A DNA stretch of 20,000 bases, taken from positions 44,812-64,811 of the forward strand of contig CAYFYA010000002.1 of the NCBI GenBank assembly GCA_964347325.1, read 5' to 3'. Made by a program: the position numbers and the translations under genes. The notes under the pieces are model-generated. The model did not search any database. It worked only from the letters and a program-made list of their open reading frames with translations, and was not told where the DNA came from. Positions 6,877 through 19,453 of this stretch are shown here, in pieces. This DNA is from an uncultured Methanomassiliicoccales archaeon. Lineage in GTDB: Archaea; Thermoplasmatota; Thermoplasmata; RBG-16-68-12; JAJISG01. Position 1 is the first letter of the stretch. Every line of letters begins with the position of its first letter.

Positions 6877-7006
6877 GACCACGACCCTTCCGGGCCAAGC
6901 TTCCCACGGGCTCGCGCACCGCAGTACCTCAGGGAACGCAGGCGGGCTTAACTTCCGGGTTCGGGATGGGACCGGGTGTATCCCCGCCGCTTTGGCCGTC
7001 AAACCC
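6877..7006 (-). rRNA. rrf: 5S ribosomal RNA, solitary (ends approximate)
   Basis: Reverse strand GGUUUGACGGCCAAAGCGGCGGGGAUACACCCGGUCCCAUCCCGAACCCGGAAGUUAAGCCCGCCUGCGUUCCCUGAGGUACUGCGGUGCGCGAGCCCGUGGGAAGCUUGG... carries the hallmark archaeal 5S segments CCCAUCCCGAAC, GGAAGUUAAGCCC, GUACUG...GUGCGCGAG and UGGGAA. Proposed helix I is GG-UUU-ACGGCC / GGUCGU-GG-CC. Upstream TATA-like TTTAATAT at 7033..7040. Confidence 0.9.
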
Positions 7007-10242: not shown

Positions 10243-12603
10243 ATGGCAAGCGAGGCTGTTACGTCGGAGAGACCCGTCAGGGCCCCGGTCCGCATCGAGC
10301 TAAGCCGTGATCTCGGGCTTTTCGACGTGACCATGATTGGCATAGGAGCCATGATAGGTGCTGGCATTTTCGTGCTGACAGGCAGTGCCGCCCACGTGGC
10401 TGGCCCCGCCGCAGTCCTAGCCTTCGGCATTAACGGCCTCGTGACGCTCCTAACGGCCTTTGCCTACGCAGAGCTAGGCAGCGCTTACCCCGAGGCAGGC
10501 GGCGGATACCTTTGGGCGAAGGAGGGGCTCCCGGCTCCCTCTGGCTTCTTAAGCGGTTGGATGTCCTGGGTGGCCCATATCATCGCCTGTGCTCTCTACG
10601 CCGCCGCGTTCTCACACGTCATCACTTTCACCCTTGGGGAGTACGGACTGCCCGTGGGAGGCGAGCCCATCTCAGTCGGGGGATTCACCTTCAACCTCGT
10701 GACTGTCTTCATCACGATAGCAATCGTGGCCTTCTTCGTCTTGGTCAACTACGTTGGGGCACAGACCACGGGGCGGACGGAGGGTCTTATCACCCTCGCC
10801 AAGATCGGAGTCCTCGCGGTCTTCATCGGCGTCGGCGCCTTCGCGATGGTCAAAGACCCGACGGCTCCGAGCCGATTCTGGGCCGACTTCGCCCCCAACG
10901 GCGCGGGGGGAATCCTACTCGCCATGGGCCTGACCTTTATCGCCTTCGAGGGCTACGAAATCATCGCCCAGTCAGGCGAAGAGGTGAAGCGCCCCAAGAG
11001 GAACATCCCCCGGGCGATCTTCCTCTCAATCGCCGTCGTTGTCACCACATACATCCTCACCTTTATCGTGGCCCTGGGCGTCGTGAGCTGCCCCGCTGAA
11101 CAGGAGGCTTGGCTATGCCTAGGCGGGCAGGACCCCGAGCTTGCCATGATTCGGGCGGCGGAGTCCCTCATGGGTCCCGTGGGCGTGGTCCTCATGGTGG
11201 GAGGCGCCCTCCTCGCCACGACCTCCGCCTTGAATGCCACAGTGTACTCCTCATCTCGGGTTAGCTTCGCCATGGGCCGGGATGGGGCGCTCCCCCGGTT
11301 CCTAGGCCGTGTGCACCCCCGTCGACACTCCCCTGCCAACGCTGTCCTCATCAGCGGCATCATCATTGTCATCTTCGCCGTCACGCTCCCCATCGAGCAA
11401 ATCGCCGCCTCGGCTGACATCATGTTCCTCCTCCTCTTCGTCATGGCGAACCTCAGCCTACTCAGCCTTCGCACGAAGCGGCCAGACCTGGATCGAGGCT
11501 TCCGGGTCCCCTTCGTCCCGTACATCCCGTTGGTGGCTATAGCTGCCAACATCTTCCTCGCCGTTTTCATCTGGAACCTGCCCGGTGAAGGCGTGGGCGG
11601 CGTTGGCGCCGGGCAGGTGGCCTGGTACATTGCCCTTCTTTGGCTCAGCGTAGGCCTCATCTATCACTTCTTCCGAGGAGGGCGGGAGGAGATAGCGAGG
11701 GCTCCGCCCATTAGGAGGGAGATCCTGGAGGTCATTGCTGCTCCCCTGCGAAGGGTGGAGAGGGTGGGGCGTCATGTCCTCCTTCCCCTTAGGGACCCCA
11801 CGAACCTGGGGATGGTGAGGCTTGGAGCCCAGGTGGCCAGGGAGCGAGAGGCGGAGCTCCTCATACTCCACGTCATCGAGGTGCCCCGGACGTTGCCCCC
11901 GAAGTCGGTCAGGTTCGGATACGTCGACGATCGCATCGCGGCGCTCCAGAAGCCAAGGGATCTGGCTCGCCAGATGGGCGTCCAGGCCTCCATACTGGTC
12001 AAGATTGCCCACAAGGTCTACGACACGATCCTCGAGACCGCCGAGCAGGAAAGGGTCGAGGCCATGATCCTGGGCTGGCGAGGGGAGCGTCCAGCGCGCG
12101 GTGGCCGCATCCTCGGCAGTAACATCGACTTCCTAGTTCAGAGGGCGAAGTGTGACGTGGTGGTGTACAAGCCCTTGGGCATCACGGAGAAGTTCGGGAA
12201 GATAACCCTCCTGGCCGGCCACGCATGGCACGTCACTCACGCTGCGAAGATGGCCGGCCTAGTCGCCAAGGAGCGCGGGGTCGAGGTCACTATCTTGAGC
12301 GTAATCCCCCACAAGTCGGTCGAGGAGGCGACCATCGCCGACGGCCGAAGGCTGAAGGCCGTCTTCGAGGAGATGGACGTGCAGAGCGAGCACAAGATCG
12401 TCTACTCTGGCTCTATAGTGGAGGCTGCGGCGAAGGAGTCGAGCAAGACCGACCTCCTGGTCATGGGTGCCAGTCCTACCTGGGTTCTCTCCAAGTACGC
12501 CTTCGGCCCCTTGGAGGACAGGATAGCCAAGCGGGTGACCTGCCCCGTGCTGATGTTCCGCAAGATGACCGAAAAACCTAGACTTGAAGAAACAGAAGCT
12601 TGA
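10243..12603 (+). CDS. APC-superfamily amino acid permease with C-terminal universal stress protein (USP) domains
   Basis: 786 aa: IGIGAMIGAGIFVLTG...AYAELGSAYPEAGGGYLWAKEG (APC motifs) and roughly 12 TM helices. The soluble C-terminus ELLILHVIEVP..AILGWRG..GRILGSNIDFLVQRAKCDVVVYKP continues to VTILSVIPHK...DLLVMGASPTWVLSKYAFGPLEDRIAKRVTCPVLMFRK (tandem USP-like). TTTTATC box about 30 nt upstream. Confidence 0.93.
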   Translation: MASEAVTSERPVRAPVRIELSRDLGLFDVTMIGIGAMIGAGIFVLTGSAAHVAGPAAVLAFGINGLVTLLTAFAYAELGSAYPEAGGGYLWAKEGLPAPSGFLSGWMSWVAHIIACALYAAAFSHVITFTLGEYGLPVGGEPISVGGFTFNLVTVFITIAIVAFFVLVNYVGAQTTGRTEGLITLAKIGVLAVFIGVGAFAMVKDPTAPSRFWADFAPNGAGGILLAMGLTFIAFEGYEIIAQSGEEVKRPKRNIPRAIFLSIAVVVTTYILTFIVALGVVSCPAEQEAWLCLGGQDPELAMIRAAESLMGPVGVVLMVGGALLATTSALNATVYSSSRVSFAMGRDGALPRFLGRVHPRRHSPANAVLISGIIIVIFAVTLPIEQIAASADIMFLLLFVMANLSLLSLRTKRPDLDRGFRVPFVPYIPLVAIAANIFLAVFIWNLPGEGVGGVGAGQVAWYIALLWLSVGLIYHFFRGGREEIARAPPIRREILEVIAAPLRRVERVGRHVLLPLRDPTNLGMVRLGAQVAREREAELLILHVIEVPRTLPPKSVRFGYVDDRIAALQKPRDLARQMGVQASILVKIAHKVYDTILETAEQERVEAMILGWRGERPARGGRILGSNIDFLVQRAKCDVVVYKPLGITEKFGKITLLAGHAWHVTHAAKMAGLVAKERGVEVTILSVIPHKSVEEATIADGRRLKAVFEEMDVQSEHKIVYSGSIVEAAAKESSKTDLLVMGASPTWVLSKYAFGPLEDRIAKRVTCPVLMFRKMTEKPRLEETEA

Positions 12604-15237: not shown

Positions 15238-15420
15238 AGCTTAACTGGACCGACCGTGGAGGGGCGAAACTTAATTATCGGAGTTGGGATTTCAGGTCAG
15301 TCTAGGGCGCTCGAACTACCCGATATGGCAAGGCATACCGTAAGGTTTATGAATTATCTCACACTTCCGCAAGAGCTGAACCCCGCCGCCGCTGACCGTG
15401 GGCCCGTAGCTCAGCTAGGT

Positions 15421-15447
15421 TGGACGGCCCGAGGCTGGTCCCTAGAA
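15421..15447 (+). other. tRNA-Lys intron 1 (27 nt), D-loop, position 20/21
   Basis: TGGACGGCCCGAGGCTGGTCCCTAGAA. Central helix CUAG(15415..15418)/CUAG(15442..15445), 5' bulge GU^U, 3' bulge AA^A, inner helix GGAC/GUCC extended by GGCC-cga-GGCU. Confidence 0.9.
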
Positions 15448-15464
15448 AGAGCATCTGGCTTTTA

Positions 15465-15507
15465 GGCGATGATCCCGAAGGCGAGGATAGGAGGGCGTTG
15501 CGTCGAA
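15465..15507 (+). other. tRNA-Lys intron 2 (43 nt), anticodon loop, canonical position 37/38
   Basis: GGCGATGATCCCGAAGGCGAGGATAGGAGGGCGTTGCGTCGAA. Bulges UA^G and AA^A, outer helix the anticodon stem, inner helix GCGAUG/CGUUGC plus CCC/GGG. The central 4-nt segment CUUU/GUCG pairs only at its ends. Confidence 0.88.
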
Positions 15508-15529
15508 ACCAGGTGGTCCGGGGTTCGAA

Positions 15530-15559
15530 ATTGCGTCTCTAAGGGAGGCGCAGCGAAAG
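15530..15559 (+). other. tRNA-Lys intron 3 (30 nt), T-loop, position 59/60
   Basis: ATTGCGTCTCTAAGGGAGGCGCAGCGAAAG. Outer helix T-stem CGGGG/CCCCG, central helix UUCG(15524..15527)/CGAA(15554..15557), bulges AA^A and AG^U, inner helix UUGCGUCUC/GAGGCGCAG with a G.U at each irregular position. Confidence 0.92.
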
Positions 15560-15602
15560 TCCCCGCGGGCCCGTCGGGCAGCGAGCAGCAGGAGGCTAAG
15601 CC

Positions 15603-15857
15603 ATGGCCTTCAACGTGATGGAACACGAACTGGTCCCCGAGCACTACCTCCTTTCGGATAAGGAAGCGGAGGAGGTCCTGGGTGAGCTTGGAGTGGACAA
15701 AGAGCAGCTTCCTAAGGTGAAGAGGGGAGATCCCTGTATCGAGTTTCTCGAAGAGGCCCTCGGGCAGGATATCGTCGAGGGTAGGATCATCAAGGTCGTT
15801 CGGAGGAGCCCCACGGCGGGCGTCTTCGTCGCCTTCAGAGTCGTAGTGGAGAGGTGA
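15603..15857 (+). CDS. rpoH: DNA-directed RNA polymerase subunit H
   Basis: [77 protein letters not shown] is typical of Rpo5/RpoH. SD-like AGGAGG about 8 nt upstream of ATG, directly upstream of rpoB. Confidence 0.96.
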
Positions 15858-15859
15858 GC

Positions 15860-18800
15860 ATGCGCGAACTCGTCGAGTCCTTCTTCAAGGAGAGGAGCAT
15901 CGTCAACCACCACATCGCTAGCTTTAACGACTTTCTGGCATCTGAGGACAACCCCAATAGCAGGATGCAGGGGATCGTGGACAGCCTTAGAGCCTCCCTG
16001 GAAGACGAAAGGCGTGGGATAATCAAGCTGGACGAGGACAGGACGGAGGGTCGGCTGGTGGAGATCCGCTTCGGTCGCCGGACCGACGACCGAGGGAGGA
16101 CCTCCGCTGAGGCTAAGCCTACGATCCACGTGAAGCTCCCAGAGGTGAAGGAGGCGAACGGGGCGTCCCACCCGCTGACGCCGCTGGAGTCCAGGTTGAG
16201 GAACCTGACCTACCAGGCTCCCCTCTACCTCGAGTTCACCATCATCGAGGACGGCATCGAGCGGGAGCCTGAGCGGGTATTCGTAGGCAACCTACCCGTC
16301 ATGGTGAAGTCGAAGAAGTGCAGGGTCTACCGTGAGAACCTGGAGGACGGTTACGACCTGACGGACGAGGAGTACTATAGGAAGCTCGCGGCGATGGGTG
16401 AGGATCCCTTCGATCCAGGCGGATACTTCATCATCGGGGGCACCGAGCGGGTTCTCATCTCCCTCGAGGACCTGGCTCCCAACCGCGTGCTGGTAGAGTT
16501 CAACGAGAGGTACGGAAGACAGCTCGAAGTCGCCAAGGTCTTCTCCCAGAAGGAGGGTTATCGCGCCCTCACCCTGGTCGAGAAGAAGAAGGACGGAGTC
16601 CTCATGGTGACCGTCCCGACGGCCTCGGGCCAGATCCCTCTAGTAATCCTGATGAAGGCCCTGGGGATGGAGAGCGACGAGGAGATCTTCAACTCCATAG
16701 CCTCCGACCCCAGGATGGGCAACATCGTCTTCGCCAACCTGGAGGAGATCCAGAACAGGAAGCTCTACCCCCCCACCGGCATATTCAGCCAGGAGGACGC
16801 CCTACTGTTCCTTGAGAAGAGGTTTGCCACGGGACAGGCGAAGGAGTATCGGGTCAAGAAGGTAGACTCGATGTTGGACCGGGCGCTGCTGCCTCACCTG
16901 GGTGACTCCAAGGACGACAGGATCAAGAAGTCCCTCTTCCTGGGCAGGATCGCCAGGACCATTCTGGAGCTCTCATACAAGATCCGCCGGGAAGACGACA
17001 AGGACCACTACGCCAACAAGCGACTGAAGCTGGCTGGAGACCTCATGGAGGACCTCTTCAGGGTGGCCTTCGCCAACCTGATTAAGGACCTGAAGTACCA
17101 GCTGGAGCGAAGCTACGCGCGGGGGAAGGGCCTCAAGATTTCCGCCGCCATTCGACCAGACCTGCTGTCGCAGCGCCTGCTGCACGCCCTAGCAACTGGC
17201 AATTGGGTGGGTGGGCGCGCGGGAGTGTCCCAGCTTCTCGACAGGACCTCTCACATGAGCGCCATGAGCCACCTGCGCCGAGTAACCTCCCCGCTCACCA
17301 GGAGCCAGCCCCACTTCGAGGCCCGGGATCTTCACCCGACGCAGTGGGGTCGGCTCTGTCCTAACGAGACCCCAGAGGGCCAGAATTGTGGGCTGGTGAA
17401 GAACGCTGCTCTTGTGATCGATGTTTCTGAAGGATTTGATGAGAATACTGTCAAGCTGCTGTTGGCGGACCTGGGAACCAAGCAGGTAGGGGGCCAACAA
17501 ACGGACCTTACCCGTGTCTACGTCAACGGAGACCTCGTTGGTCTCCATCAGGACGCCGAGAGGCTGGCCCAGGAGGTTCGGGAGAGGCGGCGGACGGGGC
17601 TGCTGAGCCACGAGGTCAACGTTCGCTTCGATCGCGGGATGAACGAGGTCATCATCAACTGTGACGAGGGACGCATGAGGAGACCTCTTCTCGTGCTCAC
17701 CGACGGGAAGCCCGTGCTGAGCCGCAAGGACCTGGAGGACCTGAGAATCGGGAAGCTGCGGTGGACCGACCTCATCGACAACGGCATCGTCGAGTGGTTG
17801 GACGCGGAGGAGGAAGAGGACACCTACATCGCCGTCTACGCCTACGACGTCCCCCAGGTGTGCTCCCACTGCCGCAAGCCTCTCTCCAGGAGGGATGTCG
17901 AGTGGATCAACCTCGGGCTCACCGTCGATGTGGTCGATCTCCAGTGCCAGTTTTGCGGCGAGACCTTCGAAGTCCCGTCCCTGCTCACCAAGGAGCACAC
18001 ACACATGGAGGTGGACCCCTTGGTCATTCTGGGCGTCAGCTCTGGTCTCGTCCCCTATGCCGAGCATAACTCCTCGCCACGCGTCACCATGGGTGCGGGC
18101 ATGATCAAACAGTCCCTGGGTCTACCCGCCTCCAACCATAGGATTCGACCCGACACGAGGGGCCATCTGCTCCACTACCCCGAGATTCCCCTGGTCCAGA
18201 CGGAGGCCATGAAGTATCTCCACTTCAACAGGCGGCCCGCGGGACAGAACTTCGTCGTGGCCGTGATGTCCTACCACGGGTGGAATATGGAGGACGCTGT
18301 GGTCATGAACAAGGCCTCCATCGAGCGGGGCCTTGGTAGGTCGACCTTCATGAGGACCTACAAGGCCGAGGAGCGTCGCTATCCCGGAGGCCAGGAGGAC
18401 CACTTCGAGATTCCCAGCCCCGATGTCCGTGGAGCAAGGGCTGACCTAGCCTACGCGAGCCTGACGCCGGACGACGGCCTCATCAGTCCAGAGGTCATCG
18501 TGGACGGCGGGGACGTCCTCATAGGTAAGACTTCCCCTCCCCGCTTCCTGGAGGAAGAGACCGACTTCCTGACGCCCCAGAAACGGCGGGAGACCAGCGT
18601 CACGGTCCGCCACGGAGAGTCCGGTTGGGTCGACTCTGTCATGCTGACGGAGTCTGAGAATGGCAGCAAGCTGGCCAAGGTGAAAGTGAGGGACCTCCGA
18701 GTGCCGGAACTGGGGGATAAGTTCGCCTCCAGGCACGGTCAGAAGGGGGTCATAGGCCTCATTGCGCCGCAGGAAGACCTTCCCTTCAACAAGGACGGAG

Positions 18801-19453
18801 TCGTTCCAGATCTGCTCATCAACCCCCACGCGATCCCCTCGAGGATGACGGTGGCCCACGTCTTGGAGATGATCGGCGGCAAGGTCGGGTCCGCAGAGGG
18901 GAGGACCGTGGACGGCACCCCCTTCAGCGGTGCGACGGAGGAAGCCCTCAGGAGTGGCCTAGTGGCGAACGGTTTCAAGAGCAACGGTAAGGAGGTGCTT
19001 TACGACGGGAAGACGGGACGAATGATTCCCGCGGAGATCTTCGTGGGAGTGATCTACTACCAGAAGCTGCACCACATGGTCTCCGGGAAGCTCCACGTTC
19101 GAAGCCGCGGTCCCGTCCAGATCCTCACGCGACAGCCGACGGAGGGCAGGTCCAGACAGGGAGGGCTAAGGTTCGGTGAGATGGAGAGAGACTGCCTTAT
19201 CGGTCACGGAGCCGCCATGGTAATCAAGGATCGCCTCCTCGACGAGTCGGACGGCATCCTATTATATGTTTGCGGGAACCCAGAGTGCGGCCACTTCGCC
19301 ATGAAGGACCGCAAGGGGAACCTGCGGTGCACTGTCTGCGGGAATAACTCGAACATCTATCCTGTCCAGACCTCATACGCTTTCAAGCTCTTGGTGGACG
19401 AGTTGCTATCGCTGGGCGTTTCCATGAGGCTCCAGCTGGAGGACCTCCGATGA
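15860..19453 (+). CDS. rpoB: DNA-directed RNA polymerase subunit B, unsplit (B'' and B' fused), intein-free
   Basis: [111 protein letters not shown] and a C-terminal CGNPECGHF...CTVCG. ATG 15860 is preferred; GTG 15854 overlaps the rpoH stop. Confidence 0.97.

Follow-up and report, generated by a model that had tools for sequence, protein, structure and literature searches.

A three-intron tRNA-Lys(UUU) gene directly upstream of rpoH in a Thermoplasmata archaeon

The 20,000-nucleotide stretch of contig CAYFYA010000002.1 (assembly GCA_964347325.1) that was analysed here, referred to below as the window, carries at positions 15400-15573 of the plus strand a tRNA-Lys(UUU) gene that is interrupted by three short introns, located at sites 20/21, 37/38 and 59/60 of the mature tRNA. 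Judged by its RpoB sequence, the source organism, an uncultured soil archaeon, belongs to Thermoplasmata close to Methanomassiliicoccales. The exons of the gene are invariant among close relatives while the introns drift, with compensated changes in their helices, and this combination points to a functional gene rather than a decayed one. We are highly confident that the gene is functional and that its transcript is spliced at these three sites.

Gene structure and intron anatomy

Deletion of 27 nt (15421-15447), 43 nt (15465-15507) and 30 nt (15530-15559) from the gene leaves a 74 nt tRNA-Lys(UUU); the introns make up 100 of its 174 nt. An exhaustive search of three-deletion combinations for the proposed 74 nt product returned this single solution (27 + 43 + 30 nt), with a one-nucleotide ambiguity at the anticodon-loop intron. 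ARAGORN identified the spliced 74-mer as tRNA-Lys(ttt) with an acceptor stem of 7 bp, a D stem of 4 bp and anticodon and T stems of 5 bp each, enclosing the loops AGCTAGGTA, CTTTTAA and TTCGAAT, so that removal of the inserts restores the canonical cloverleaf. The spliced sequence differs at few positions from its intronless orthologues, which score 69-75 bits with the Rfam model RF00005.

All segments lie on the plus strand. Exon 1 (15400-15420; GGGCCCGTAGCTCAGCTAGGT) comprises the 5' strand of the acceptor stem, U8 and A9, the 5' strand of the D stem and the D loop as far as U20, and is invariant in 11 clade members. It is followed by intron 1 (27 nt; TGGACGGCCCGAGGCTGGTCCCTAGAA) at site 20/21 in the D loop. 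Exon 2 (15448-15464; AGAGCATCTGGCTTTTA) holds A21, the 3' strand of the D stem, A26, the 5' strand of the anticodon stem and the anticodon loop as far as A37, with the anticodon TTT at 15461-15463. Intron 2 (43 nt; GGCGATGATCCCGAAGGCGAGGATAGGAGGGCGTTGCGTCGAA) occupies the canonical site 37/38. Exon 3 (15508-15529; ACCAGGTGGTCCGGGGTTCGAA) continues from A38 through the 3' strand of the anticodon stem, the variable loop and the 5' strand of the T stem to A59 in the T loop, where intron 3 (30 nt; ATTGCGTCTCTAAGGGAGGCGCAGCGAAAG) is inserted at site 59/60. Exon 4 (15560-15573; TCCCCGCGGGCCCG) completes the molecule with U60, the 3' strands of the T and acceptor stems and the discriminator G73. The 3'-terminal CCA is not encoded.

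In its unspliced form the gene escapes conventional searches. ARAGORN reported no tRNA at 15400-15573 in the unspliced window, and Rfam did not match the tRNA gene either at the gathering score across the window or at E <= 10 across 15300-15680. The sole match in the latter search, a togavirus frameshift element at 13.7 bits, was dismissed as spurious. By spliced alignment the locus scores 127, compared with a maximum of 43 for the other 188 tiles of 400 nt in the window (mean 18, standard deviation 6) and with 33 at most in 200 shuffles. The locus stands about 17 standard deviations above background, and the match to a tRNA is therefore not a product of chance. Folded without constraint at minimum energy, the 174 nt (z = -2.46) form the acceptor, anticodon and T stems together with the intron helices. 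The first-pass annotation of this DNA, made from the sequence by itself, had described a tRNA-Lys(UUU) with D-loop, anticodon-loop and T-loop introns of 27, 43 and 30 nt and had warned that standard tRNA scans may miss it; the exhaustive search and the ARAGORN call on the spliced form bear out the former claim, and the failure of both ARAGORN and the Rfam tRNA model on the unspliced form the latter. The resemblance might in principle reflect chance or an assembly chimera, an explanation that could draw on the failure of the automatic finders only. We give it practically no weight, given the separation of the locus from background and the recurrence of the same structure in independent NCBI, ENA, JGI and Logan assemblies, with near-identical copies in the loci that we label L001, L122 and L126.

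Each of the three introns separates the penultimate from the last nucleotide of a hairpin loop, and all three junctions fit a bulge-helix-bulge (BHB) geometry under one rule. The central helix H arises where intron positions -6 to -3 pair with four nucleotides of the exon, namely those just before its last two. The 5' bulge consists of the last two exon nucleotides and the first intron nucleotide, and the 3' bulge consists of intron positions -2 and -1 and the first nucleotide of the next exon. The outer helix h is the stem of the arm itself, and a helix internal to the intron, h', follows the 5' bulge. At every junction, a central helix of 4 nt is thus followed by a bulge of 3 nt in which the junction lies after the second nucleotide. 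The register was derived from where the 3' bulge is known to sit in canonical 37/38 introns. Published descriptions of the motif agree with it (PMC3239211, PMC4090602).

The T-loop intron forms a strict hBHBh' motif, in which the 5 bp T stem serves as the outer helix, UUCG pairs with CGAA in H (four of four pairs), the bulges are AA/A and AG/U (the slash marking the junction) and the inner helix h' has 10 pairs. The D-loop intron likewise has a complete H (exon CUAG with intron CUAG, four of four pairs), bulges GU/U and AA/A and an h' helix of GGAC with GUCC. At the anticodon-loop intron the bulges are UA/G and AA/A, h' is a 6 bp helix of GCGAUG with CGUUGC, and the outer helix is the anticodon stem, with 7 pairs as extended by the counting script. 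The 43 nt intron was also considered as a possible C/D-box small RNA; the C box matches at 5 of 7 positions and the D box is absent in the window, and the candidate was rejected by eye.

From this architecture we infer the following route to the mature tRNA. Transcription would begin at a promoter of the BRE/TATA type (BRE, transcription factor B recognition element) about 50 nt upstream and would probably run on into rpoH-rpoB. In the precursor, each intron would pair with the four loop nucleotides before the last two exon nucleotides to create a BHB motif with the arm stem as its outer helix. The tRNA-splicing endonuclease EndA would then cleave between the second and third nucleotides of each 3 nt bulge, making six cuts, and a ligase of the RtcB type would join the four exons. 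To complete the 74 nt tRNA, processing by RNase P and RNase Z and the addition of CCA would follow. The enzymes named here are putative, as are the transcription, cleavage and ligation steps assigned to them.

Orthologues, intron distribution and conservation

A tRNA-Lys(UUU) gene lies directly 5' of rpoH in about 60 related Thermoplasmata loci and contains zero, one, two or three introns, located at the same three sites. Intronless copies in this position were identified by ARAGORN in loci of the Methanomassiliicoccaceae, Methanomethylophilaceae, DHVE2 and Thermoplasmatales types; where ARAGORN gave no call or a wrong one, the mature sequence was recovered with the spliced aligner. Three introns are present throughout the clade of the window (L001, L003-L009, L062 and L022, the last by inspection of the alignment) and in L024. 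They are apparently also present in L017 (CP070751.1), for which the automatic boundary of the anticodon-loop intron is off by one. Assemblies with the three-intron form include CAYFZX01, with an RpoB 94% identical to that of the window, VBMN01 and CAVYJM01, and CP070732.1 has the D-loop and T-loop introns. The combination of D-loop and T-loop introns occurs in about two dozen species, and a D-loop or T-loop intron alone in a few. Intron content tracks the clades of an RpoB tree, and the D-loop and T-loop introns extend to lineages with an RpoB only about 61% identical to that of the window. The tree, obtained by neighbour joining, was used for this broad pattern only, as six loci lie on artefactual long branches because the open-reading-frame picker selected a wrong protein. 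A metagenome scan for the form with a D-loop intron added at least 120 further contigs; among the matches listed, 57 have three introns and 54 have the D-loop and T-loop introns. A look-up with RpoH gave as its sole match a Logan contig of 921 nt from ERR2564004, and one with RpoB gave no match that would extend the window.

The first-pass annotation had proposed an unusual expansion of tRNA introns. This holds in the sense that D-loop and T-loop introns are spread over many Thermoplasmata lineages rather than being confined to one genome, and it is shown for the tRNA-Lys gene, the one tRNA gene of this genome that the window covers. A scan for T arms and acceptor stems, with or without a 59/60 intron, across 213 loci and the window (1.58 Mb) recovered essentially tRNA-Lys only; its 17 non-Lys candidates, mostly in coding sequence or known intronless tRNAs, were uninformative. 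Within the window, neither ARAGORN nor Rfam found another tRNA gene.

Intron length varies among the orthologues. In the metagenome contigs L131, L160 and L201, whose exons are intact, the T-loop (59/60) intron reaches 121, 164 and 109 nt, respectively, and elsewhere it measures 20-40 nt; a review gives 11-129 nt as the range for archaeal tRNA introns (PMC4090602). Among 80 genome loci the longest introns (51, 67 and 34 nt) are those of L017, the chromosome of a 'Thermoplasmata archaeon' metagenome-assembled genome (MAG) that is recorded as complete at 5.16 Mb. This is a large size next to the genomes of 1.7-2.6 Mb reported for cultured Methanomassiliicoccales (PMC4153887).

In an alignment of 11 species of the clade, with RpoB proteins 76-94% identical to that of the window, every exon column is invariant while the intron interiors can barely be aligned. 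RNAalifold predicts from this alignment the acceptor, anticodon and T stems and the intron helices, with double compensatory changes at 13 pairs; 12 of these belong to intron helices and the remaining one to the anticodon stem. Across the wider set of orthologues, the central helix of the D-loop intron is 97% paired in 33 distinct sequences (23-45% when the partner is slid), that of the anticodon-loop intron is 90% paired in 13 distinct sequences (slid partner 56-75%) and that of the T-loop intron is 99% paired in 34 distinct sequences (slid partner 24-71%). The D-loop central helix is maintained by compensatory pairs (CTAG/CTAG, GTAG/CTAC, CCCG/CGGG and CCAG/CTGG), and compensatory changes are also found in the inner helices of the T-loop intron and, in large number, of the anticodon-loop intron.

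Several observations weigh against a functional gene that is processed in the manner proposed. The 3' bulge of the D-loop intron lies opposite A14 and G15, which creates a 2 x 3 internal loop; since these two nucleotides are unpaired, the 3' side of the motif is relaxed. At the anticodon-loop intron of the window and of L001, CUUU faces GUCG in the central helix and only the two outer pairs of the four form, as is also the case in L177, and the minimum-energy fold of the window favours a non-BHB register at this intron. A second, intronless tRNA-Lys(UUU) gene may exist elsewhere in the genome, the search having been confined to the window. On the side of the enzymes, neither EndA nor RtcB of this genome, represented by the 20 kb window, was found, a tblastn search for EndA in all of the tRNA/rpoB loci did not find it, and the Archaeoglobus fulgidus enzyme, of the α'2 class, cleaved a comparable D-loop substrate from Methanopyrus kandleri poorly (PMC5829648). 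All four central-helix pairs of the anticodon-loop intron are present in 10 of the 11 orthologues besides the window and L001, with three of four in L006, and more distant members of the clade mostly have the full four. In the window, L001 and L177 either GTCG or GCTG stands opposite CTTT, so that the inner two positions vary, and h' is kept.

The weak central helix, the possible second gene and the failure of standard finders to recognize the locus are all features that could be expected of a decaying tRNA pseudogene with three insertions, the supply of tRNA-Lys(UUU) having passed to another gene. We nevertheless regard this explanation as very improbable. The exons are 100% identical in the 11 species while the introns diverge, compensatory changes maintain the intron helices, and the insertions of dozens of lineages fall at three shared nucleotide positions. 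All of the stems are unbroken, the promoter box is conserved and so is the synteny with intronless orthologues. None of this is predicted by neutral decay. The pseudogene, which the first-pass annotation had itself put forward as the outcome that would overturn its reading, is therefore contradicted by the comparison of orthologues, and a functional, spliced tRNA-Lys(UUU) gene is the reading carried forward below.

Gene context and lineage

Upstream of the gene, the sequence 15340-15357 (+) reads as a BRE/TATA-like element, in which a purine-rich GTAAGG is followed by a TATA-like box, TTTATGAATTAT, that starts 54 nt 5' of the mature tRNA end. A box of the TTTAWA type is found at a comparable upstream distance in most of the listed relatives, both intron-bearing and intronless, and the element is a putative promoter. 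Closer to the gene, a 5' leader segment (15391-15398, +; GCTGACCG) is complementary to a 3' trailer segment (15575-15582, +; CGGGCAGC) at 7 of 8 pairs, as counted by eye and without statistics. This pairing would lengthen the acceptor stem of the precursor. It is kept with other bases in relatives of the L003 type (GCTAGCCG with CGGCTCGC), and L008 and L009 each offer two alternative leader-trailer pairings that are mutually exclusive.

The ATG of rpoH lies 29 nt past the 3' end of the tRNA. The open reading frame (15603-15857, +) encodes the C-terminal domain of Rpb5 (Pfam PF01191, E = 1.2e-23) and is followed by an unsplit rpoB (15854-19453, +). The spacer (15574-15602) contains an AGGAGG motif at 15590-15595 and no promoter-like box; in relatives, the corresponding spacers range from about 13 to 150 nt. 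As 29 nt leaves no room for a separate promoter, the tRNA is probably co-transcribed with rpoH-rpoB as the first element of the transcript. The linkage of tRNA-Lys and rpoH in about 60 loci, taken together with the spacer, likewise suggests a joint transcript of the tRNA and the RNA polymerase operon, from which the operon is freed by tRNA 3' processing.

The best matches to the RpoB of the window are from uncultured 'Methanomassiliicoccales archaeon' MAGs, with identities of 94% and 89%. Soil MAGs labelled 'Thermoplasmata/Methanobacteriota archaeon' follow at 80%, 'Methanomassiliicoccus sp. UBA345' and its relatives at 72-76%, and other Thermoplasmata, including the Lutacidiplasmatales MAG AcS5-107 (PMC9287336) and DHVE2, at 58-67%. 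These identities place the organism in Thermoplasmata near Methanomassiliicoccales and not in Thermoproteales, in keeping with the Thermoplasmatota-like lineage expected from the first inspection. GC content did not separate the lineages. The rpoB genes of L023 (CAVCVB010000018.1, 'Firmicutes bacterium CAG:194') and L054 (CAVHHN010000001.1, 'Faecalibacterium sp. CAG:74') are archaeal, 62-68% identical to that of the window, and are accompanied by an archaeal tRNA-Lys; both bins appear to be mislabelled or contaminated with a gut archaeon of the Methanomassiliicoccales type.

The window further encodes a glycosyltransferase, an aminotransferase, the DP2 subunit of PolD, a thioredoxin, a solitary 5S rRNA, an H+-pyrophosphatase, an A24-type peptidase, an amino-acid permease-Usp fusion, an MscS channel and a methyltransferase, after which come the tRNA, RpoH and the unsplit RpoB. 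Of the context genes named at first inspection, PolD DP2, the A24 peptidase (here by its C-terminal domain), the solitary 5S rRNA and the unsplit rpoB were thus recovered by Rfam, open-reading-frame and Pfam analysis. The 5S rRNA (6885-7003, minus strand; Rfam, 79.4 bits) stands alone between the thioredoxin and H+-pyrophosphatase genes, in agreement with reports that rRNA genes are unlinked in Thermoplasmatales and Methanomassiliicoccales (PMC4153887). The permease-Usp protein (10243-12603, +; 786 residues) joins an amino-acid permease (residues 24-477) to two C-terminal universal stress protein (Usp) domains.

Splicing endonuclease and comparison with known systems

To characterize the likely processing enzyme, EndA was sought among relatives. 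The M. jannaschii EndA sequence was checked against PDB entry 1A79, and a five-sequence profile of known catalytic units was followed by two large protein searches. The profile matched EndAs from 'Methanomassiliicoccales archaeon' genomes. The best 120 relatives of one such enzyme are nearly all 338-381 residues long, with a few that are shorter or partial. A doubled pattern of N and C domains was present in all 10 of the enzymes inspected, which included those of M. luminyensis, Ca. M. intestinalis and soil MAGs. In eight aligned enzymes the Tyr-His-Lys triad is kept in the C-terminal unit, and the stretch from the catalytic Tyr to the His, the site of the ARMAN-2-specific loop, carries no insertion in any of the eight. 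By these sequence features, the EndA of Methanomassiliicoccales-type relatives is of the two-unit, α'2 architecture, a class described as strict (PMC3239211, PMC4090602, PMC12397907). The two-unit enzymes inspected come from JAKRWA01, JBKGZV01, JACRNV01, JAAYTA01, DATIXC01, DATKKQ01 and JACXTP01, none of which is among the tRNA-bearing loci. Because no such EndA is tied to an intron-bearing genome, the assignment of an α'2 enzyme to the organism of the window is made by phylogenetic bracketing only, by which it is likely.

In Methanomassiliicoccales-type MAGs (L082-L093 and L214) the surroundings of the EndA gene recur, with a helix-turn-helix regulator on its 5' side and a zinc-ribbon/tetratricopeptide-repeat protein, TFB or both on its 3' side. 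In the longer EndA loci, Gar1 and a gene of the PPS_PS family (PF02006) come next.

The gene might be real and spliced, and the enzyme that processes it might still be a broadened or different EndA, with a loop insertion, an extra subunit or an ε2-like or (αβ)2-like organization. A relaxed 3' side is seen for the D-loop intron in 44 of 44 orthologues, in the subclade of the window the anticodon-loop intron is relaxed as well, and the literature ties relaxed or non-canonical introns to EndAs of broad-specificity types or with inserts (PMC3239211, PMC5829648, PMC12397907). The uniform length of the relatives' enzymes, their doubled domain pattern and the missing ARMAN-2-type insertion stand against it, with the qualification that these enzymes are from genomes other than the intron-bearing ones, and we consider a divergent EndA unlikely. 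A further possibility, to which we give somewhat less than even odds, is that a large radiation of Thermoplasmata, mostly from soil and sediment and with an ordinary α'2 EndA, may have kept tRNA introns at non-canonical sites over a long time, among them the relaxed D-loop motif and, in the subclade of the window, an anticodon-loop intron whose central helix is half mismatched. Were this so, either intron repertoire would not follow endonuclease architecture as textbooks hold or α'2 enzymes would have an unrecognized, broadened specificity, and the regular position of the introns, each just before the last nucleotide of its loop, would point to a structural rule for intron gain and tolerance.

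According to a review, Euryarchaeota with α4 or α'2 endonucleases carry only single, strict introns in the anticodon loop (PMC4090602). Multi-intron tRNAs have been listed for Crenarchaeota, Nanoarchaeum, Korarchaeum, ARMAN and two methanogens (PMC4033280), to which Thaumarchaeota are added elsewhere (PMC8450103). A search of the literature outside subscription-only papers gave no report of multi-intron tRNAs or of non-canonically placed tRNA introns in Thermoplasmata or Methanomassiliicoccales. Multi-intron archaeal tRNAs are thus known as a kind, and it is for their occurrence in Thermoplasmata that the searchable literature yielded no report. The gap may be one of literature and not of tools, as tRNAscan-SE 2.0 includes BHB models (PMC8450103) and may well detect these genes. 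Annotation that rests on ARAGORN or Rfam would report tRNA-Lys(UUU) as missing or assign the wrong isotype. The latter outcome is illustrated by L016, L020, L044, L055 and L059, for which ARAGORN with its intron search miscalled the gene as tRNA-Ala(cgc), tRNA-Ser(aga), tRNA-Glu(ttc) or a tRNA-Lys with a misplaced intron. The findings extend the multi-intron phenomenon to a widespread environmental lineage. They also provide a natural series within one orthologous gene, from zero introns to three at fixed sites, that is helpful in dating gain and loss, and a set of one strict and two relaxed substrates with which to test whether endonuclease architecture sets substrate range.

Close counterparts of the gene occur in Thermoproteales such as Pyrobaculum calidifontis, in which there are up to three introns per tRNA gene (PMC8450103, PMC4033280, PMC4090602). 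The two systems share short BHB introns, up to three in number, that conventional finders miss, and sites 20/21 and 59/60, which are established non-canonical intron sites in archaea (PMC4090602). They differ in that the lineage of the window is Thermoplasmata, with PolD DP2, in that the EndA of its relatives is two-unit rather than (αβ)2, and in that the intron sites are stable over a deep radiation. Moreover, the three introns of the window score no better than shuffles when locally aligned with each other in pairs, and this lack of mutual similarity gives no sign of the recent intron transposition reported for Thermoproteales.

Among euryarchaeal tRNAs, the pre-tRNA-Glu(UUC) of M. kandleri has one canonical intron and one D-loop intron of the HBh' form, in an organism with an (αβ)2 EndA (PMC5829648). 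The tRNA-Lys gene resembles it in combining a canonical intron with a relaxed D-loop intron, whereas it has three introns rather than two and belongs to a gene family that spans many Thermoplasmata lineages. ARMAN-2 (Ca. Micrarchaeum) has disrupted tRNAs, including some with 59/60 introns, that are cut by an ε2 EndA (PMC3239211, PMC3488258, PMC12397907), and like the window it provides a T-loop intron at 59/60 outside the TACK group. Its tested 59/60 intron is a relaxed hBH motif, however, while that of the window is a strict hBHBh', and the Methanomassiliicoccales-type EndAs are without its specific loop insertion. Finally, ordinary euryarchaeal tRNAs have a single strict BHB intron at 37/38 (PMC4090602). 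Intron 2 of the window matches them in position and BHB geometry, and the enzyme class, likely α'2, would be the same; what sets the tRNA-Lys(UUU) gene apart from them is the presence of two extra introns at non-canonical positions.

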